Positions 847-59,236 of a stretch of DNA of 64,000 bases are shown here, one piece after another (position 1 is the stretch's first letter; each line of letters begins with the position of its first letter). The DNA lies in sequence record MK509462; one strand, 5' to 3'. The notes below the pieces were generated by a model. It searched no databases. It saw only the letters and a program-made list of their open reading frames with translations, and was not told the DNA's origin. The stretch comes from Shigella phage MK-13. The translations under genes and the position numbers were made by a program.

Positions 847-2178
847 ATGACCATCATGGCTAAGAAACTTGTTACTGAACAAATGCGCGAGCAGTGGCTG
901 CCAGTTCTTCAGAAAGAATCTGAAAGTATCCAGCCGCTTTCTGCCGAAAACGTTGCTGTCCGCCTGCTGCAAAACCAGGCTGAGTGGAACGCCAAAAACC
1001 TGGGCGAATCTGACGCTCCTGGTTCTGTGAACAACTCTGTGGGCAAATGGCAGCCAGTCCTGATCGACATGGCAAAACGTCTGGCTCCGATCAACATCGC
1101 GATGGACTTCTTCGGCGTACAGCCGCTGTCTGGTCCTGACGGTCAGATCTTTGCTCTGCGTGCTCGCCAGGGCGTCGGCGACTCATCCAACACCCAACAG
1201 TCCCGTAAAGAACTGTTCATGCAGGAAGCTGATTCCGGCTACTCTGGTGACGGTACTGTACAGGCTGGCGATCCATCTGGCTTTACTCAGGCCGAGATCG
1301 AAGGTTCCGGCGCTGGCGTGACCACCATCGGTAAAGGCATGCCAACCACCGACGCTGAACTGCTGGGCACCACCACCAACCCATGGGCGCGTGTTGGTAT
1401 CACCGTTCAGAAAGCAACCGTGACTGCGAAGTCTCGTGGCCTGTACGCTGACTACAGCCATGAACTGCGCCAGGACATGATGGCGATCCACGGCGAAGAC
1501 GTTGACAGCATCCTGTCCGACGTGATGGTAACTGAAATTCAGGCGGAAATGAACCGTGAGTTCATCCGTACCATGAACTTCAGTGCAGTACGCTTCAAAA
1601 AATTCGGCGCAAACGGCGTTGTAGACATCTCCACCGACATCTCCGGTCGTTGGGCGCTGGAAAAATGGAAGTACATGACTTTCATGCTGGAAGTTGAAGC
1701 GAACGGCATCGGTGTTGACACCCGTCGTGGTAAAGGCAACCGTGTTCTGTGTTCTCCGAACGTAGCATCCGCTCTGGCAATGTCCGGCATGCTGGATTAC
1801 GCTCCGGCGCTGCAGGAAAACACCAAGCTGGCGATCGACCCAACTGGCCAGACCTTCGCTGGTGTTCTGTCTAACGGTATGCGTGTCTACATCGACCCGT
1901 ATGCAGTAGCAGAGTACATCACCCTGGCATACAAAGGCGCGACCGCGCTGGATGCTGGTATCTTCTTCGCGCCGTATGTGCCGCTGGAAATGTACCGCAC
2001 CCAGGGTGAAACCACCTTCAGCCCACGTATGGCGTTCAAAACTCGTTACGGCATCTGCGCGAACCCATTCGTACAGATCCCAGCGAACCAGGACCCACAG
2101 GTTTACGTGACTGCCGATGGTATCGCTCAGGACAGCAACCCTTACTTCCGTAAAGGTCTGATCAAAGGTCTGTTCTAA
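847..2178 (+). CDS. major capsid protein, T4 gp23-like
   Basis: N-terminus MTI..., blocks FFGVQPLSGPDGQIFALRA and NPW...KSRGL...ELRQD...EIQAEMNRE match T4 gp23; highly biased codon usage; alternative start at 856 has better RBS spacing. Confidence 0.85.
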   Translation: MTIMAKKLVTEQMREQWLPVLQKESESIQPLSAENVAVRLLQNQAEWNAKNLGESDAPGSVNNSVGKWQPVLIDMAKRLAPINIAMDFFGVQPLSGPDGQIFALRARQGVGDSSNTQQSRKELFMQEADSGYSGDGTVQAGDPSGFTQAEIEGSGAGVTTIGKGMPTTDAELLGTTTNPWARVGITVQKATVTAKSRGLYADYSHELRQDMMAIHGEDVDSILSDVMVTEIQAEMNREFIRTMNFSAVRFKKFGANGVVDISTDISGRWALEKWKYMTFMLEVEANGIGVDTRRGKGNRVLCSPNVASALAMSGMLDYAPALQENTKLAIDPTGQTFAGVLSNGMRVYIDPYAVAEYITLAYKGATALDAGIFFAPYVPLEMYRTQGETTFSPRMAFKTRYGICANPFVQIPANQDPQVYVTADGIAQDSNPYFRKGLIKGLF

Positions 2179-2197
2179 TCTAACAGGCTGGTCCTAC

Positions 2198-2224
2198 AAA
2201 ACCCCGCTTCGGCGGGGTTTTTCA
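2198..2224 (+). terminator. rho-independent terminator after capsid gene
   Basis: GC hairpin aaaccccgcttcggcggggttt followed by T-run. Confidence 0.7.
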
Positions 2225-2270
2225 TTATGGGGATTCGCTATATGATGTGCCAAACTAATTGGAGGCCATC

Positions 2271-5262: not shown

Positions 5263-5685
5263 ATGAAGAAATATATCGTACTCGTTACAGGTTCCCGCTC
5301 AATCACCGAGCGGGATAAGGTATTCGCCAAGCTGGACGAACTCCTCGATCCTCATGAAGTCTATACGTTGATCGAGGGTGAGGCCACGGGTGTCGACACG
5401 ATTTGCCGTGATTGGGCTGAAATCAATTATGTTCATACCACTCCTATGCCAATCCCTCCGAGCTATTATGAAAAGTATGGGAACGGGATGGGCAACAAAC
5501 GCAATCAGGACATGTTAGACAAGGCATTGGATCTCGCCAGGCAGACCAAGCTGGAAGTGTATCCGATTGCGATGTGGGATGGTTCGTCCACTGGCACCCT
5601 GGACATGATCAACCGTTGCAAGAAAGCTGGCCTCCCTGTGGACATCACACTGATGGGCAAGCCGAAGACCAAGCGCCTTTTGTAA
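5263..5685 (+). CDS. hypothetical protein, possible Rossmann-like (SLOG/LOG-like) fold
   Basis: N-terminal MKKYIVLVTGSRSI motif resembles Rossmann-type nucleotide-binding families; weak call. Confidence 0.35.
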   Translation: MKKYIVLVTGSRSITERDKVFAKLDELLDPHEVYTLIEGEATGVDTICRDWAEINYVHTTPMPIPPSYYEKYGNGMGNKRNQDMLDKALDLARQTKLEVYPIAMWDGSSTGTLDMINRCKKAGLPVDITLMGKPKTKRLL

Positions 5686-7884: not shown

Positions 7885-8337
7885 ATGAAAGAACAACTAC
7901 AGACAATGGCAACCGAGGACATCATGAACGAACTGGAGCCGCTGATTACAGTGGACCCAGAAGACATGAACCTTGACCAGATCTCACTGAAAATCGGGCG
8001 CTCTTGGATGGCCGTACAACGGCATTATCTGCGTGAGGGGCGTTATCTTGAATTCCTCAACGGGCGCTTCCGCCAGATCGATCTCTATCTGCGCCGCTAC
8101 TACGCAGGGGAGTTACCCCCGAACATCTACGCAGAGCGCCCCCTGAAGGTTCGCCCCCTGAAGTCTGACCTGGACACATGGGTCAAAGCCGACGATGACT
8201 ATGTAGAACTGTCTGTTCTGTTACAAGAACAAAAAGCAAAAGTCAAGTTCATCGAGACTTGTTTGGATCGCCTGAACAAGCTGGGATACGAAGTGAAGAA
8301 TGCCATCGATTGGCGAAAATATATGGATGGTTCCTGA
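7885..8337 (+). CDS. uvsY: recombination mediator UvsY-like
   Basis: Size and C-terminal block TCLDRLNKLGYEVKNAIDWRKY resemble T4 UvsY; adjacent to uvsW. Confidence 0.6.
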   Translation: MKEQLQTMATEDIMNELEPLITVDPEDMNLDQISLKIGRSWMAVQRHYLREGRYLEFLNGRFRQIDLYLRRYYAGELPPNIYAERPLKVRPLKSDLDTWVKADDDYVELSVLLQEQKAKVKFIETCLDRLNKLGYEVKNAIDWRKYMDGS

Positions 8338-9083
8338 TGGCATCTCTCCAAGCCCTGCGCAAGCTGAACGACTTCGAAAATCGTCATTACACATTCCAGC
8401 AGTACGAACTTCCTCATAAGGAACTGGAGTGTGTGACGACGGAGAACGGTCGTCATTATGTGTCACCAACTGGTGTCAAGCTGACGTCTGTAACGACGAT
8501 GCTGGGGCGTACTGGTGATCATGAATGGCTTGAGGCTTGGAGGGAGAAGCTGGGTGCAGAGGCCGCCGACCTTGAGACCATGCGTTGCGCTGACCGAGGG
8601 GAGAAGCTGCACCTCGCATGTGAACTGTATTTGAAGAACCGCCCAATGAAAGAAGTGTTGGAAGCGGCTGGCGAATACATGTTCATGTTCAAGCAGCTGT
8701 TCCCCTATCTGAACAAGATGACAAAGATCTATGCTCAGGAGATCCCGTTATATAGCGAGGTGCTTGGTCTCGCAGGTCGAGTGGACCTTATCGGGGTTTA
8801 TGAGGGTAAGCCTGCTATCATCGACTTCAAGACATCGAACACCATGAAGACGCGGGGAATGATCGAGGACTACAGTATCCAGCTGTGCTTGTACTCTGTT
8901 ATGTTCCAGCAGATGTTCGGTGTCAAGATCACCCGCCTCATCAATGTGATTGCCAACGAGTCATCGTTGACGCCAACCATCATAGAGTTCAACCGCGATG
9001 ACATACTGACGAAGATGTTTGAGCGTGTTCGTCTGTACCATCGCATGGATAAAGAACAGAACGGAGTCTGGCCGGATCGCTAA
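8337..9083 (+). CDS. PD-(D/E)XK superfamily nuclease (YqaJ/Cas4-like exonuclease fold, no Fe-S cysteines)
   Basis: Motif GRVDLIG...IIDFKTS (D...D-x-K) typical of PD-(D/E)XK nucleases; start overlaps uvsY stop (ATGA). Confidence 0.5.
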   Translation: MASLQALRKLNDFENRHYTFQQYELPHKELECVTTENGRHYVSPTGVKLTSVTTMLGRTGDHEWLEAWREKLGAEAADLETMRCADRGEKLHLACELYLKNRPMKEVLEAAGEYMFMFKQLFPYLNKMTKIYAQEIPLYSEVLGLAGRVDLIGVYEGKPAIIDFKTSNTMKTRGMIEDYSIQLCLYSVMFQQMFGVKITRLINVIANESSLTPTIIEFNRDDILTKMFERVRLYHRMDKEQNGVWPDR

Positions 9084-9111
9084 ATACCCCATATATCTTG
9101 GGAGATTTTGT

Positions 9112-10620
9112 ATGGCAGACATTCAGATTGTTAAGGTTAACGAAGTCCGCATGCGTTGCATCGCAGATCTTTCTATCAGGGAAGAGCTGAATGACTACTT
9201 CAAATTCGAAGACCCGAACTTCGTTCCCAACCCCTTCTCTAAATGGGACGGGGTTGTTCGCTTGTTCACCAAGTCATCCGGTCTGATTGATATCGGCCTA
9301 CTGTTTGAGGTGTTCAAGTTCTGCAAGAACAACAAATACACCATTGAACTGGATCCGGCTCTGAAGTACATTCAGGACATCCCAGATCAAGAAATCCATG
9401 ACTTCATCGACAGTCTCCATCCAAAGATCCGCACCGAAAATCACGAATACATCGATGCTGAGACCCGCGACTATCAGTACGACACCATCGCCAAGGCTAT
9501 GCGTCAAACCAGATGCGTCTGTGAACTGGCTACGAGTGCTGGTAAGTCCTTTATTCTGTATGTCATGGCGCGGTACTACAGGCAGCGCAGAGAAGCTCTC
9601 GAAAGTCCTCTGAAGACGCTTATCGTGGTGCCGTCGATTCACCTGGTCACTCAGCTGTACGACAACTTTGAAGAGTACGCACACGGCAGCGATTGGAAGC
9701 CCGTTGCCAACACTCAGTTGATCTTTGAGGGCGCGACAAAGGAAATCAGCAAACCAATCGTCATCAGTACATGGCAGGGCATTCAAGACCAGCCGAAAGA
9801 ATGGTTCCACCAGTTCGGTGACATCGTGGTGGATGAAGTGCACACCTCCAAGTCTGAGAAACTGTCCTACATCCTCAACAACTGCATCTACGCCGACCAG
9901 CGCCTGGGGGTTACAGGTACGCTGTCGAACACCAAAGTTGCCGGGCTTCAGGTGGTGGCTCACTTCGGGGCGTACCATAAGATCATCACGGCTCGCGACC
10001 TTATCAATCTCGGGTACGCCACTGACATCAAAGTGAAGATGATTCAGCTGAAGCACACTCCGGCGGATGCTGTTGGTCTGGACGGGGATTATACCAAGGA
10101 AATAGAATACCTTATTACACACCAGTCCCGCAACGAACTGATCGCCAAGATGGCACTGAATCTGAAAGGGAACGTGGCCATCATGTTCGAGCGTATTGAC
10201 GCCCACATGATGGTTGTGTACGATATGCTGAGCGCAGTCAAGCCCAACGTGTTTGTCATCAACGGGGAAGTGAAGATCGAAGACCGCCGCCGCATACAGA
10301 AAGCGATGGAGGATGGAGAGGATATCACGTTGTTGGCTTCATACGGGACAATGCAACAGGGTGTGTCAATCAAGAAGCTACACCACCTTGTACTGGCGCA
10401 CCCGAGCAAGTCATATATCCGCGTCATACAGACATTGGGTCGTCTGATGCGTCAGCACTCCTCCAAGGACGTCGCGTGGATATGGGACTTAGTGGATGAT
10501 GTGTCGTACAACGCCAGCACGAACCACGCTATCAGGCACTCTCATGAGCGATACAAGTTCTACCTGACAGAGCGCCACCCTGTGGAGTTCATGAAGGTGG
10601 CGCTGGGTAATCACGACTGA
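9112..10620 (+). CDS. uvsW: UvsW SF2 DNA helicase
   Basis: Colinear similarity to T4 UvsW: N-terminal domain, Walker A ATSAGKS, DEVH box, VTGTLS, helicase C motifs. Confidence 0.9.
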   Translation: MADIQIVKVNEVRMRCIADLSIREELNDYFKFEDPNFVPNPFSKWDGVVRLFTKSSGLIDIGLLFEVFKFCKNNKYTIELDPALKYIQDIPDQEIHDFIDSLHPKIRTENHEYIDAETRDYQYDTIAKAMRQTRCVCELATSAGKSFILYVMARYYRQRREALESPLKTLIVVPSIHLVTQLYDNFEEYAHGSDWKPVANTQLIFEGATKEISKPIVISTWQGIQDQPKEWFHQFGDIVVDEVHTSKSEKLSYILNNCIYADQRLGVTGTLSNTKVAGLQVVAHFGAYHKIITARDLINLGYATDIKVKMIQLKHTPADAVGLDGDYTKEIEYLITHQSRNELIAKMALNLKGNVAIMFERIDAHMMVVYDMLSAVKPNVFVINGEVKIEDRRRIQKAMEDGEDITLLASYGTMQQGVSIKKLHHLVLAHPSKSYIRVIQTLGRLMRQHSSKDVAWIWDLVDDVSYNASTNHAIRHSHERYKFYLTERHPVEFMKVALGNHD

Positions 10621-10988
10621 TCTTGATTCACATAGGCGGGGGTGGCCTCGCCTTCATCAGATACTGCGCCGAACAATTTGTCCAGAGAAACCAGACATTG
10701 TGCGTTCAGGTGTTCACTGATAGTGTCCTTCAGCATTTGTTCGCTGCCCAATTTGAATGGCAGAACCTTCGCTTCGACGCCGTTTTCAAACGTCACCACA
10801 CCGACATACAGACCAACTTTCAGGCCTGCCATCAAACCCAGAGGGACAAATCGCGGCTCCGATGGTAAGTTCTTGTCTGACGCCAGCTGCGCCAGATAAA
10901 CTGGGGTGCCTGTGACAAATTGCCCTGCGGTGAGGATGGCGTCTGGCTTACTGCATCCGACCGCATATAATCCTACGAACTGTTTCAT
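10611..10988 (-). CDS. hypothetical protein (125 aa)
   Basis: Minus-strand ORF with GAGAG RBS, convergent with uvsW. Confidence 0.4.
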   Translation of the reverse strand: MKQFVGLYAVGCSKPDAILTAGQFVTGTPVYLAQLASDKNLPSEPRFVPLGLMAGLKVGLYVGVVTFENGVEAKVLPFKLGSEQMLKDTISEHLNAQCLVSLDKLFGAVSDEGEATPAYVNQDQS

Positions 10989-11328
10989 ATATTACTCTCG
11001 TGTGTTGGTTAACATGACATACATATTATTTCGCGTGCATGTTTAGACCAAATAAATTAATTTTGCTGTTGAATAAAAATTGCTTTCCTGTTGAACAAAT
11101 GGCGCGGTATTATACGAGTTGTGAGTGTTAACGAACAACGAGTATTTGTTTTATGAGCGAAGCGAATAGGATTAATAAAGGTTATTATCTTTAATAAAGT
11201 CCATAAATGCCGAAGGCATTTATTAATAACGCGTAGCGCAATTTGCCACTTGTTCTATAAGCACAACACAGCGATACTAGATTGCGTCAAACATGACTTG
11301 AACCCCACTATATTTTGAGGATACATAA

Positions 11329-11997
11329 ATGCAAGAGATCACTCTCTCCGAACGTACACTCCAGTTGCTGGCCAACTTTGAGACCATCAACCCATCTATC
11401 GTTCTGACACCGGGTAAGATGCTGCGCAGCATTAACGATTCGTCTACTGTTATCGCCGTGGCACAGATCGAAGAAGACTTCCCGTTTGAGTTCCCTATCC
11501 TGGACCTGACCAAACTTCTGGCCATCCAGCGCCTGCCTTCCTTCAAAGGCGGTAAAGCCGAATTCCATCAGGACTACATCCTGTTGAAAGGCGAAAGCTC
11601 TCAGCTGCAATTCTGGCGTTCTGCTAAAGAACTCACTGTTGTTCCGGCTGACACCATTGAACTGCCGTCTGTCGACTTTGAAGCGATCATCACTCCAGAG
11701 AAGATGAAAGAACTGACCCGCGCCTGTTCTACCCTCGGTCACAAGACTGTGCGCCTGGTTGCTCAGGGTGGCAAAACTCGTCTGGTTGCAACCACCACTA
11801 CCCTGGATAACTCCAACAACTACACCGTTGAGCTGGGTGAAACCGCGCTGCCGGACTTCGTCATGCCACTGGACGTTGCCAACCTGAAGATGATCGAAGG
11901 CAACTACACTCTGCGTGCCTGCGCTGAGCTGCAGATGGTGAACTTCCAATCATCCGACGCGACGATCAATTACTTCGTCGGCGCACAGATTGAGTAA
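11329..11997 (+). CDS. sliding clamp, gp45-like
   Basis: Length and sequence pattern match T4 gp45; precedes gp44/gp62 as in T4. Confidence 0.9.
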   Translation: MQEITLSERTLQLLANFETINPSIVLTPGKMLRSINDSSTVIAVAQIEEDFPFEFPILDLTKLLAIQRLPSFKGGKAEFHQDYILLKGESSQLQFWRSAKELTVVPADTIELPSVDFEAIITPEKMKELTRACSTLGHKTVRLVAQGGKTRLVATTTTLDNSNNYTVELGETALPDFVMPLDVANLKMIEGNYTLRACAELQMVNFQSSDATINYFVGAQIE

Positions 11998-12078
11998 TCA
12001 ATCTCCAGCCTGATGCTATAATGTGTGGGCGGGGGCGTTCCCCGCCTATTTGAAATGATTCTTCTACACGAGGCTGAA

Positions 12079-13068
12079 ATGTCTAATATCACTATCGTTT
12101 CCGACCAGTACGCATGGGAAAACAAGTACCGCCCTGACAACCTGGACGAGATCATCATCCCTCAAGACGTCCGCGCTAAAATCCATGGCTACATTACCAG
12201 TGGCAACGGTAACATCCCGTCTATGCTGTTCTACTCCCCTCAGCCTGGTACTGGCAAGACTACCTCTGCCCTGGCCGTGTGTAATGAAATCGGCTGTAAG
12301 CAACCACTGATGATCAACGCATCCCTGGACAACAGCATCGACGTTATCCGTGACCGCGTGATTCAGTACTCTACTGGTGTGAGTGTATTCGGTGGCCGCA
12401 AAGTCGTTATCCTCGACGAAGTAGAGCGTCTGTCTATGGCGGCACAGGAGTCGCTGAAGGGTATTGTGGAGAAGGTCTCCAAGAACTGTTCATTCATCCT
12501 GACCACCAACGCCAAGCAACGTGTGAACGAACCTCTGCGCTCTCGTTGCCGTGAAATCGACTTTATCTGGAATGAGACCGAGGCTGATGAGGTAAAACTT
12601 CAGTTCATGCGCCGCTGTGCTGAAATCCTTCGCAGCGAAGGTGTTGAGTATGACCCTCCTGTGTTGGCTGCTATTGTCAAACGTCATTTCCCCGATAACC
12701 GCCGCATCATGGGTGCCCTACAGGATAACGTCACCACCTACGGCAAGATCGATGAACGCGCCCTCGCCGTATTGAAATCTGCCGACATGGGTGTGTTGGT
12801 TGATATGCTGAAAGGCAATGACTGGGCTGGCATGAAGCAGTGGGTGACTGACAACCAGAACTACATCACCGAAGACTTCTATTCCCGCTTCTTCCAGTTC
12901 TGTGTACCACAGGATAAAGAGAAGCCGATGCTGGTTCAGAATGAGTCTATCCCTGATCTGGTATGCGTATGTGGTCAGTCTCAGATTGAACACCGTCAGG
13001 TCGGCGATGTCTGGCTGCATGCTGTGTTTTTCCTGACCAACGTCATGCTCAACATCAAGTGGAAGTGA
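12079..13068 (+). CDS. clamp loader large subunit, gp44-like (AAA+)
   Basis: Walker A PQPGTGKTT, DEVE box, SRC motif; T4 gp44-like N-terminus. Confidence 0.9.
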   Translation: MSNITIVSDQYAWENKYRPDNLDEIIIPQDVRAKIHGYITSGNGNIPSMLFYSPQPGTGKTTSALAVCNEIGCKQPLMINASLDNSIDVIRDRVIQYSTGVSVFGGRKVVILDEVERLSMAAQESLKGIVEKVSKNCSFILTTNAKQRVNEPLRSRCREIDFIWNETEADEVKLQFMRRCAEILRSEGVEYDPPVLAAIVKRHFPDNRRIMGALQDNVTTYGKIDERALAVLKSADMGVLVDMLKGNDWAGMKQWVTDNQNYITEDFYSRFFQFCVPQDKEKPMLVQNESIPDLVCVCGQSQIEHRQVGDVWLHAVFFLTNVMLNIKWK

Positions 13069-13524: not shown

Positions 13525-13989
13525 ATGGCGCGCAATACGCTAGACATATTGAACATTTCAGCCGTCAACGATGAGGCCAGCATCGTTGATTGTATGGTTG
13601 AAGTTCAATTGAACCAAGATCGGCCAGGAATATTCCTGGGGATCAAGGAAACACTGAGCCGAATTGGGGTAAACACGCGCCAAGAGCCGAATACTCTGTA
13701 TCAGACTTGTCATATTCTTCACAAGTATGGCAAGTATTATATCGTCCACTTCAAGCATCTGTTTATGCTGGACGGGCATTACAACGGGTTTAACCGCGAA
13801 GATGTCCTGAGGATGAACCGCATCATCAAGCTGCTCGAGCAGTGGAATATGGTGAAGGTCATTCATCCCGAGCAGGTCACCGAAGCCGCCGATATGTCAC
13901 GCATTAAAGTGGTTAAACACGATCAGGTTCCTGAATGGAAGCTGGTTCCAAAATACATTATCCGGCCTACAAAGGCCAAAAGCGAATAA
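13525..13989 (+). CDS. regA: translational repressor RegA
   Basis: Strong similarity to T4 RegA (LYQTCHILHKYGKYYIVHFKHLF...EWKLVPKYIIRP). Confidence 0.85.
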   Translation: MARNTLDILNISAVNDEASIVDCMVEVQLNQDRPGIFLGIKETLSRIGVNTRQEPNTLYQTCHILHKYGKYYIVHFKHLFMLDGHYNGFNREDVLRMNRIIKLLEQWNMVKVIHPEQVTEAADMSRIKVVKHDQVPEWKLVPKYIIRPTKAKSE

Positions 13990-48156: not shown

Positions 48157-48249
48157 AACTTTTTACTTCACATCACCTCCCTCCAGGCCTCGTCGAATGA
48201 GGCCTTTTAAAATACTTCAAAATTATTTTAAAAATTTATTGAAAAAGAC

Positions 48250-48278
48250 TTTACTCTTCAATAATGATGCACTATTAT
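48250..48278 (+). promoter_or_regulatory. T4-type early promoter (-35 TTTACT, 17 nt, -10 TATTAT) with AT-rich upstream element
   Basis: ctTTACTcttcaataatgatgcacTATTAT preceded by a 40-nt A/T tract. Confidence 0.5.
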
Positions 48279-58726: not shown

Positions 58727-59069
58727 ATTGAGTTCCGGTTGTCAAACAAGGATTTGAAGGTATTTATGCGCAGCGGATTTTGCCTTATATACTATAGGAA
58801 GCTCTGCTTCCGTTCATTTTATTTGTTATTCGATCCTATTCGCTTCGCTCATCACACCGCCTTATGCAGGCAGCACCATTCCAATGCCATGGAGGCATAA
58901 GAGCGAGGCAATAACTGTACACCTCAGAACACTCCTTGAAAAATGGTATTTTACTGACAATCTGATTCAAAATAGACGATCCCCAACAAATGACTCAGGA
59001 ACAAGCCCATTATAACAATTTCAGGTAAAGAGAGCACGCGTTAACCTGTTTTACAGTTAAGCCAATAAA

Positions 59070-59089
59070 AATCCCGCCGAAGCGGGATT
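59070..59089 (-). terminator. rho-independent terminator (minus strand)
   Basis: aatcccgccgaagcgggatt with A-run upstream on + strand, i.e. T-run downstream on minus strand. Confidence 0.6.
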
Positions 59090-59236
59090 ACTGTTTCTTA
59101 GACAACCTGACCTTGAGGGCTTCGGTTAACAAGTCAAGATGCCACGGCATCGACTCGTTGATTTCAAATATGCTATAGCCGTGTAACTTCAATTCATCAC
59201 ACATCACGAAGTAGGATAGTAAATCAGTTTCAAACA

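Follow-up and report, generated by a model that had tools for sequence, protein, structure and literature searches.

The intergenic region between uvsW and gp45

The subject of this study is a gap of 340 bp between uvsW and the sliding clamp gene gp45 in Shigella phage MK-13 (sequence record MK509462). It occupies positions 10989-11328 of the 64,000-nucleotide stretch of DNA that was analysed as a whole and is referred to here as the window. Sequence comparison identifies the core of the gap, 11074-11239 on the plus strand, as a composite element in which a promoter-like box, two predicted hairpins (H1 and H2), an A+T-rich tract and a CGCG box follow each other in this order. The comparative data give good support to the view that it represents a new family of structured elements, absent from Rfam and conserved across the Ackermannviridae. 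They further suggest that the core is flanked by a putative leftward promoter of an adjoining 125-aa gene and by a putative gp45-proximal promoter with an invariant leader. Bases 9000-13000 of the window share 99.5% identity with Shigella phage Ag3 (Agtrevirus, Ackermannviridae). The genes around the gap are the following:

7885-8337: uvsY
8259-9083: PD-(D/E)XK exonuclease gene
9019-10620, plus strand: uvsW (Pfam UvsW_N, ResIII)
10611-10988, minus strand: 125-aa gene of unknown function (phrog_4255)
11329-11997, plus strand: gp45, sliding clamp (phrog_223), followed by gp44, gp62, RegA and others, all on the plus strand
13525-13989, plus strand: RegA (Pfam PF01818)

The gap has 34.4% GC compared with 50.6% for the whole window, in agreement with a preliminary description that had called it AT-rich. 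The A/T tracts mentioned there are also present, and of all 60-mers in the 64 kb, those at 11170-11229 (23% GC) and 11019-11078 have the second and the fourth lowest GC content. Of 273 Ackermannviridae records, 270 gave a blastn alignment that covers 80% or more of the gap. Identity to phage CBA120 (Kuttervirus) was 78.8% for the gap and 77.7% for the gp45 coding sequence (CDS), while the third codon positions of gp45 reached 54.7% and the adjoining 125-aa gene 57%. Since the gap is about as similar as the gp45 CDS and far more similar than the third positions, we conclude from these identities that it is a non-coding control region under purifying selection almost from end to end. Neither a promoter nor a terminator is listed for the gap in the Ag3 genome paper (PMC3121705 suppl. 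2), and the promoters that the LIMEstone1 record places over it are consensus-based guesses only. Both the Ag3 and the LIMEstone papers regard such gaps merely as promoter space (PMC3121705 for Ag3). A scan for tRNA and tmRNA genes gave no match.

The core of the gap is predicted to fold into a strand-specific structure

Each genome carries three paralogous copies of the element in intergenic regions (IGRs) upstream of gp45 (IGR1), gp5 (IGR2) and gp6 (IGR3), and each copy is oriented like its downstream gene. The features of the IGR1 core, for which footprints were taken from an alignment of gap orthologs across genera (A1; fixed hexamers, variable spacers), are:

11074-11113, plus strand: promoter-like module, with the same layout in all three IGRs
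11112-11145, plus strand: hairpin H1, 11 Watson-Crick or wobble pairs with two tandem G.A/A.G interruptions and the loop GUUA
11153-11172, plus strand: 20-mer ATGAGCGAAGCGAATAGGAT, repeated exactly at 58833-58852 on the minus strand
11153-11167, plus strand: hairpin H2, the first 15 nt of the 20-mer, pairs A-U, U-A, G.A, A.G, G-C and C-G with the loop GAA
11168-11229: A+T-rich tract, about 75% AT, holding the direct repeat TTAATAAAG twice
11203-11223: perfect 9-bp hairpin AUAAAUGCC-GAA-GGCAUUUAU
11230-11239, plus strand: conserved GC box CGCGTAGCGC, which includes GCGTAGC (A1)

The central part of the gap is its largest conserved block. In an alignment of 11 orthologs plus paralogs (A4), 99.2% of the cells of H1 were paired, and four of its pairs showed compensatory double changes. 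When the pairing was slid along the alignment as a control, it fell to 19-56%. RNAalifold predicted H1 independently. In both paralogs the closing pair of H2 covaries: Kuttervirus and Taipeivirus have C-G where the Aglimvirinae have U-A. The loops of H2 differ (GAA, GUA, UUCA, AAC). As RNA, H1-H2 folded with -14.2 kcal/mol on the plus strand versus -5.7 on the minus strand, and the segment 11100-11235 with -40.9 kcal/mol (z = -4.7) versus -26.6. A DNA nearest-neighbour fold of the hairpins, with parameters that ignore sheared G.A pairs, gave -4.2 kcal/mol (z = -0.8). The folds and alignments indicate that H1-H2 is a strand-specific structured element with tandem sheared G.A pairs and compensatory support.

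No further copy of ATGAGCGAAGCGAATAGGAT was found in the window even at three mismatches, and 0.01 would be expected by chance. The preliminary description had reported this 20-bp motif correctly. It had, however, missed the main content of the gap, namely that the motif is a hairpin in a structured element with three paralogs. Searches of Rfam 15 at gathering and permissive thresholds identified no family in the window; the best sub-threshold match there was RAGATH-36 with 17.8 bits against a threshold of 70. Nothing was found for the IGR2 and IGR3 loci either. The mini-hairpin consensus GCGNAGC/GCGNNAGC occurs as GCGAAGC at 11157-11163, in the loop of H2, and as GCGTAGC at 11232-11238. Loops of this kind in orthologs read GCGTAGC, GCGGAGC, GCGTCAGC and GCGTTAGC.

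Two candidates in this part of the gap were rejected. One was a closing stem, proposed by a single-sequence fold, in which the promoter spacer (GGCGCGG) would pair with the CGCG box; RNAalifold gave it no support. The 'middle promoter' that the LIMEstone1 GenBank record places over H2 on the opposite strand is an in-silico match to the T4 consensus, and the conservation there is better explained by the pairing of H2.

An A+T-rich tract follows H2 in IGR1 of every genus. It measures 42-61 nt with 75-93% AT, its composition being kept and its sequence not. Phage RPN242 (locus L008) has a 19-bp tandem duplication, TTAATAAAGrTTATTATCT, aligned to 11173-11191, so the tract tolerates changes in length. 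The hairpin aaatgccgaaggcattt pointed out in the preliminary description was located within the tract at 11205-11221 and extends to the 9-bp hairpin at 11203-11223. Folded as DNA, the latter has -6.8 kcal/mol (z = -5.2). It resembles a terminator whose T-run is better on the minus strand (the plus-strand tail is UAAUAA, and three of nine pairs are G-C), and a terminator scan called it on the minus strand only. The hairpin is restricted to the Aglimvirinae and Kuttervirus (loop GUCA); other sequence takes its place in Taipeivirus, Miltonvirus 3M and Nezavisimistyvirus phiEa2809. It is not among the Ag3 terminators (PMC3121705 suppl. 2), and a consensus terminator scan of the gap performed no better than shuffles. 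By these comparisons, 11203-11223 does not qualify as a conserved intrinsic terminator. Behind the tract, CGCG(N)AG is found in IGR1 and IGR3 of all genera, and RNAalifold gave a weak long-range pairing of the GC box with the 5' half of H2.

Paralogous copies upstream of gp5 and gp6

IGR2 is a gap of 510 bp (58727-59236, minus strand) between gp26/orf083 and gp5. All its features lie on the minus strand:

58797-58953, minus strand: IGR2 element, with a covariance-model match at 58834-58902 (E = 0.012)
58953-58938, minus strand: A-tract/TTTTTC box
58919-58914, minus strand: -10-like TACAGT
58905-58898, minus strand: boxA-like CGCTCTTA
about 58899-58856, minus strand: hairpins Ma and Mb
58852-58838, minus strand: H2
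58811-58797, minus strand: hairpin GGAAGC-AGA-GCTTCC
58768-58761, minus strand: gp5 late promoter CATAAATA (Porf084 in PMC3121705 suppl. 2)

IGR3 lies outside the window. It is a divergent gap of 332 bp upstream of the gp6 baseplate wedge gene and was seen in loci L042 (about 2080-2230, minus strand), L049, L055, L144 and L151 (456-787). It holds the fullest form of the element, H1+Ma+Mb+H2; IGR1 is without Ma and Mb, and IGR2 without H1. The Kuttervirus copy of IGR3 appears cut down to promoter and H2 (loci L038, L043 and L056). For Ma, Mb and H2, the RNAalifold prediction was exactly the model drawn by hand, with 96.5% of cells paired, five compensatory pairs and a conserved U.G among the pairs. 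The loop of Ma and the downstream linker covary as CCAU:AUGG or CCCU:AGGG in 10 of 10 sequences, which indicates a pseudoknot or an alternative helix. This paralog covariation and the conserved U.G point to RNA as the form in which the structure would act. In a single-sequence fold of IGR2, the H2 sequence, instead of forming its hairpin, pairs with the boxA-like 5' end. In both IGR2 and IGR3 the A+T tract measures 15-23 nt; next come a hairpin that lacks a U-run and the late promoter of the respective gene, gp5 or gp6.

Apparent third-position changes in IGR2 had drawn attention to a micro-open reading frame (MPPWHW...). It was dropped because its ATG is lost in IGR3 and in Taipeivirus and because covariation in the stems and between loop and linker accounts for the changes. 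A separate promoter-like site is present in IGR2 at about 59027-59007, after terminator Torf083, and reads TTTACC-N9-TATAAT with a TGT extension.

Distribution beyond the window

A covariance model (CM) of H1-H2 was built from the Aglimvirinae, Kuttervirus and Taipeivirus only. In the window it matched IGR1 with 87.5 bits, IGR2 weakly (E = 0.012) and nothing else. It recovered the IGR3 loci at about 36 bits as well as Serratia phage 3M (Miltonvirus, 34.8 bits) and Erwinia phage phiEa2809 (Nezavisimistyvirus, 35.6 bits). For 3M, blastn had aligned about 100 nt at the left gap edge only and missed H1-H2, and phiEa2809 was not among the blastn matches. The uvsW-gp45 gaps of these two phages are annotated as 610-820 bp (3M, L006 1647-2362; phiEa2809, L028 682-1503) and contain a long unannotated minus-strand reading frame at the position of the 125-aa gene. 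Vibrio phage VAP7 has only an H2-like hairpin, which adjoins a pure A/T run of 95 nt. A search for related loci with gp45 returned mostly close relatives.

The CM also matched unrelated viral contigs (L085, 38.6 bits; L077), where the matches adjoin genes for RNR, dUTPase, PIF1 helicase and PD-(D/E)XK nuclease. A pattern scan of IMG/VR gave more than 120 matches. About half of these are expected by chance for the estimated size of the collection and many are coding; singletons were therefore left unused. Tandem arrays with a period of 63 nt were seen in unrelated viral contigs (L066 4540-4960, IMGVR_UViG_3300049215_000320; L096, L113, L131, L132 and L142). Their unit, TTTCCTTTAAATA + ACGAGCGAAGCGAGTTG + GAGCGyCAGCGAC, combines the H2 motif with another tandem-G.A hairpin. 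Such an array might be a promoter cluster or a set of iterons. The L066 contig had no blastn match among cultured phages, and its flanking proteins were without Pfam matches. In several unrelated contigs, a TATAAT-like hexamer is directly followed by the ACGAGCGAAGCGAG hairpin or by a GNA-triloop hairpin. Abutment of a -10-like hexamer and a hairpin was recorded at these loci:

L031: about 5413-5465
L077: 100-167
L085: 12600-12651
L030 (VAP7): 1225-1262

Predicted promoters and the gp45 leader

The promoter-like module of the element consists of an A-tract, TAAAAAT (11074-11080, UP-like), TTTCCT (11084-11089), TTGAAC (11091-11096) and the -10-like TATTAT (11108-11113). The spacing in IGR1 is TTTCCT-N18-TATTAT, with conserved hexamers and a variable spacer in A1. 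Alignment of the three copies (A3) gave a common box of A-tract, TTTyCT, 17-18 nt and TAnnnT, and within the 64-kb window TAAAA-N3-7-yTTTyC was found only at the IGR1 element and its IGR2 paralog. Because TATTAT overlaps the foot of H1, the start of transcription is uncertain. On either side of the core lie:

11023-11051, minus strand: putative leftward sigma70-type promoter of the 125-aa gene (A1 footprint)
11251-11279, plus strand: putative gp45-proximal promoter, TTGTTC (11251-11256), N17, GATACT (11274-11279)
11282-11328, plus strand: gp45 5' leader of 47 nt, nearly invariant (A1 columns), with Shine-Dalgarno sequence GAGGA at 11317-11321

The leftward promoter, correctly positioned for the 125-aa gene, would use a -35 box TTGGTC (11051-11046), N17 and a -10 box TAATAT (11028-11023); in A1 these hexamers are conserved and the spacer is variable in Agtrevirus, Limestonevirus, Kuttervirus and Taipeivirus. 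The gp45-proximal boxes are invariant with a variable spacer across genera and overlap a late-promoter-like CTATAAG. A consensus promoter scan found no plus-strand site in the gap and one minus-strand site, which was within shuffle expectation. It missed the leftward promoter because the -35 box matches only 3 of 6 positions. The gap contains three correctly spaced hexamer pairs that are conserved while their spacers vary, all of them predicted promoters only. The preliminary description had proposed a multi-promoter control region. The conserved hexamer pairs fit this proposal, but no plus-strand site reaches the scan threshold. Use of the gap as promoter space is plausible on these grounds. 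T4 gene 45 is under RegA control, and by analogy the gp45 leader may be a translational operator bound by RegA.

Direct repeats were also noticed. TTGAAy occurs three times in the gap (11069-11074, 11091-11096 and 11298-11303), two of the copies being CTGTTGAAyAAA, 22 bp apart, on either side of the -35-like box. AACATGAC is repeated near both gap ends (11012-11019 and 11291-11298). These repeats could be candidate protein-binding sites.

A possible R-loop origin of replication

The preliminary description had suggested a possible replication-origin-like element. We tentatively favour the possibility that the element combines an early structured transcript with an A+T-rich tract and acts as an R-loop origin of the T4 type, and the case for an origin role of the region is circumstantial. 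Early in infection, host sigma70 RNA polymerase would start at the module promoter and transcribe rightward. Both the transcript and the non-template strand are rich in G and prone to structure, and the A+T tract directly behind them melts easily; together this would favour a persistent RNA-DNA hybrid, whose RNA end would prime leading-strand synthesis. Such an origin would resemble T4 oriF, oriG and oriE, with a structured pre-primer as in ColE1 RNA II.

T4 oriF and oriG consist of a promoter and an A+T-rich unwinding element that form an R-loop, oriE uses an early promoter, and T4 origins are found near transcriptional divergence (PMC3016281). As at oriF (uvsY), oriG (34) and oriE, the predicted promoter here would be followed within about 150 bp by an A+T-rich tract that may unwind easily, and there are several copies per genome at sites of local transcriptional divergence. 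In the T4 annotation, oriF lies at uvsY, between uvsW and genes 25/26, and oriE inside gene 5, beside gene 6. The genes by these two origins are homologous to the neighbours of the three element copies, which stand beside uvsW/uvsY and the gp5, gp6 and gp26 homologs. A position of the early-type promoter, predicted in the case of the element, within a late-gene region is likewise common to the element copies and oriE. In IGR2 and IGR3 the copies precede late promoters and would give an early transcript without obvious coding purpose, which fits a role independent of downstream gene expression. Sense-strand GC skew (G over C) across H1-H2 ranks in the 99.7-99.9th percentile for the window. Mini-hairpins of the GCGNAGC type are a recurrent feature of sites where phage replication and transcription begin (PMC13037366).

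Several points weigh against an origin. In the literature searched, no transcript, R-loop or replication data were found for any Ackermannviridae phage. If a MotA promoter is defined by a MotA box centred at -30 plus a sigma70 -10 (PMC3016281), the element has none: no MotA-type box is found at -30, and the MotA-box-like TGCTTTC (11082-11088) ends 19 nt before TATTAT instead of about 12-13 nt and is not conserved in Taipeivirus or the paralogs. Neither a tandem-G.A hairpin or mini-hairpin nor sequence similarity was found at T4 115321 or 79355 (oriF and oriE); T4 origins have no motif in common with each other. The window showed no GC-skew inflection at the 2-kb scale. In IGR1 the A+T tract begins about 55 nt past the predicted transcription start; in IGR2 and IGR3 the tract of 15-23 nt is too short for a T4-like DNA unwinding element. 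T4 R-loops need no specific sequence (PMC3016281), so the T4 model does not predict a conserved RNA fold, and the fold that is conserved here includes the covarying loop-linker helix of the M domain. Because H1 directly adjoins the -10-like hexamer, transcripts beginning 7 nt after the hexamer would lack the 5' arm of H1. Finally, the lowest-GC 60-mer of the window, 48205-48264 (13% GC), is placed by the lists of the Ag3 paper between terminator Torf101 and early promoter Porf100 and hence is an ordinary terminator-promoter gap; AT-richness alone therefore signals a promoter and not an origin.

The element differs from T4 origins in that about 55 nt of conserved structured sequence separate its promoter from the A+T tract. 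The primer of oriE is antisense to gene 5, whereas the elements here are sense and upstream, and origin activity here is a prediction. ColE1 RNA II offers a precedent for structure. It is a promoter-driven, structured non-coding transcript whose fold is needed for the persistent hybrid that primes replication, and a pre-primer of this kind would explain a conserved RNA structure at an R-loop origin. RNA II is about 550 nt long, regulated by the antisense RNA I and processed by host RNase H for Pol I, while neither an antisense partner nor homology to it was seen at the element.

A more far-reaching version of the R-loop origin, which we consider doubtful, is that the three modules are Ackermannviridae origins coupling R-loop priming, gp45 loading and late-gene activation, and that they exemplify a widespread phage design. 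The R-loop would be locked by sheared-G.A mini-hairpins in the displaced non-template strand, in the nascent RNA or in both. The RNA 3' end would prime DNA and at the same time form a junction at which the clamp loader could place gp45, beside the gp5 and gp6 late promoters. The hairpin modules beside replication and nucleotide-metabolism genes in unrelated contigs would then reflect a common origin design.

Alternative explanations

A post-transcriptional function without any role in replication is nearly as likely as the R-loop origin. The element could be a structured 5' leader of the early gp45-operon transcript or a processed small RNA (sRNA), and could act in mRNA stability, terminator read-through, translation control or titration of a host RNA-binding protein. 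The conservation is of the RNA type (compensatory pairs, conserved G.U, strand specificity and the loop-linker helix of the paralogs), and all three copies share the orientation of the downstream gene. Sites for RNase E or Hfq typically show an AU-rich stretch with hairpins on either side. For read-through, about 40 intergenic terminators are listed for the genome, one of them between gp45 and gp44 (PMC3121705 suppl. 2). Late promoters are situated downstream of the element in IGR2 and IGR3, however, so that late gp5 and gp6 mRNAs would lack it. With no conserved intrinsic terminator downstream, a discrete sRNA is not evident. The lack of an Rfam family match and the predicted start inside H1 also speak against this explanation.

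Antitermination RNAs such as HK022 put and the lambda nut sites with boxA and boxB sit close to promoters. Like these, the element is predicted to be a two-hairpin RNA just past an early-type promoter and upstream of terminator-like hairpins. The IGR2 copy opens at 58905-58898, the predicted RNA start, with CGCUCUUA, identical to lambda boxA. A boxA is absent from IGR1, however, and CGCTCTTA is confined to IGR2 of the Aglimvirinae and degenerate in Kuttervirus and Taipeivirus, which does not amount to a lambda-type nut site. Also unlike put and nut, the hairpins resemble neither boxB nor put, late promoters bypass the element, and there was no evidence of an N or Q homolog.

Less likely is a DNA-level element, whose hairpins would arise in the non-template strand where an open promoter leaves it single-stranded, or would be recognised in DNA form by a protein of phage or host, RNA being irrelevant. 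It could serve as an operator, as a primase or helicase loading site, or as a clamp-loading 'enhancer' for the adjoining late promoters. Here, as in L031, L077, L085 and VAP7, the first hairpin immediately adjoins the -10-like hexamer. All tandem G.A steps are in a Y-GA-R context, known for sheared G.A pairs in DNA. The loops fit the DNA mini-hairpin consensus described by Hirao, the H2 loop GCGAAGC being a match, and such mini-hairpins are used by the G4 primase, RSF1010 RepB' (ssiA) and the N4 virion RNA polymerase at its promoters (PMC13037366). Unlike a bare mini-hairpin, H2 continues into tandem G.A pairs and a closing pair that covaries, and it is part of a larger element with RNA-type covariation; the H1 loops of Kuttervirus and Taipeivirus (GCTTTGC) are outside the consensus. 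The weak DNA fold reported above, although its parameters ignore sheared G.A pairs, argues against a DNA-level element, as do the conserved U.G, transitions from A-U to G.U and the loop-linker covariation of the paralogs, which indicate RNA. C.T mismatches on the complementary strand make a cruciform unlikely. An N4-like virion RNA polymerase is not known from the Ackermannviridae; no search for it was made in this phage.

It is improbable that the gap holds only ordinary divergent promoters, UP elements and a terminator, with incidental hairpins and 20-mer and with conservation due to these signals and recent ancestry. Other AT-rich gaps in the window are plain promoter or terminator regions, the Ag3 and LIMEstone papers see promoter space only, and related sequences may exceed shuffle controls without real structure. 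Yet about 100 nt outside any hexamer are conserved at the level of coding DNA, compensatory changes occur between paralogs and genera while slid controls collapse, the CM recovers the element in genera where blastn fails to align the gap, and the exact 20-mer repeat has its chance expectation of 0.01. 

The element may also be compared with the PeSL (promoter-early stem-loop) repeats of T4-type phages, reportedly described by Arbiol and co-workers in 2010 as dispersed intergenic cassettes of a sigma70-type early promoter and stem-loops. These are said to be short and present in tens of copies in hyperplastic regions, with the stem-loop before the promoter. The element, by contrast, is present three times, each time at a fixed position by core genes, and its conserved structure of about 100 nt comes behind the promoter.

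A small protein encoded in the gap is highly improbable: the candidates are open reading frames (ORFs) of 21-31 aa in the window, a 35-aa CDS annotated in the homologous gap of Salmonella phage Mutine (L003 1671-1778) and additional 'hypothetical proteins' in the records of some relatives, but in the alignment of orthologs no ORF is common to different genera, indels of 1 nt disrupt the frames, most starts are TTG, and substitutions follow base-pair covariation, not third-position wobble. The preliminary description had reported no ORF, which holds for ORFs conserved across genera but not for those of 21-31 aa. The Mutine 'hypothetical protein' and similar records overlap H1/H2; as the gap has no conserved ORF, the Mutine CDS is probably a spurious call.

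Implications for the Ackermannviridae

Phages of this family (ViI-, CBA120-, Ag3- and LIMEstone-like) are widely used in biocontrol and therapy, and their promoters, origins and non-coding RNAs are known from consensus guesses only. A gap annotated as empty contains a deeply conserved, covariation-supported element, for which exact coordinates and testable stems are now defined. If the element is a leader or sRNA, tandem G.A hairpins would be the basis of a new family of regulatory RNAs in phages, with related modules in unrelated contigs. With either function, small ORFs in the gap should no longer be annotated. Should it prove to be an origin or primer module, the element would show where replication starts in the Ackermannviridae and extend the T4 R-loop paradigm to a case in which RNA or DNA structure matters.

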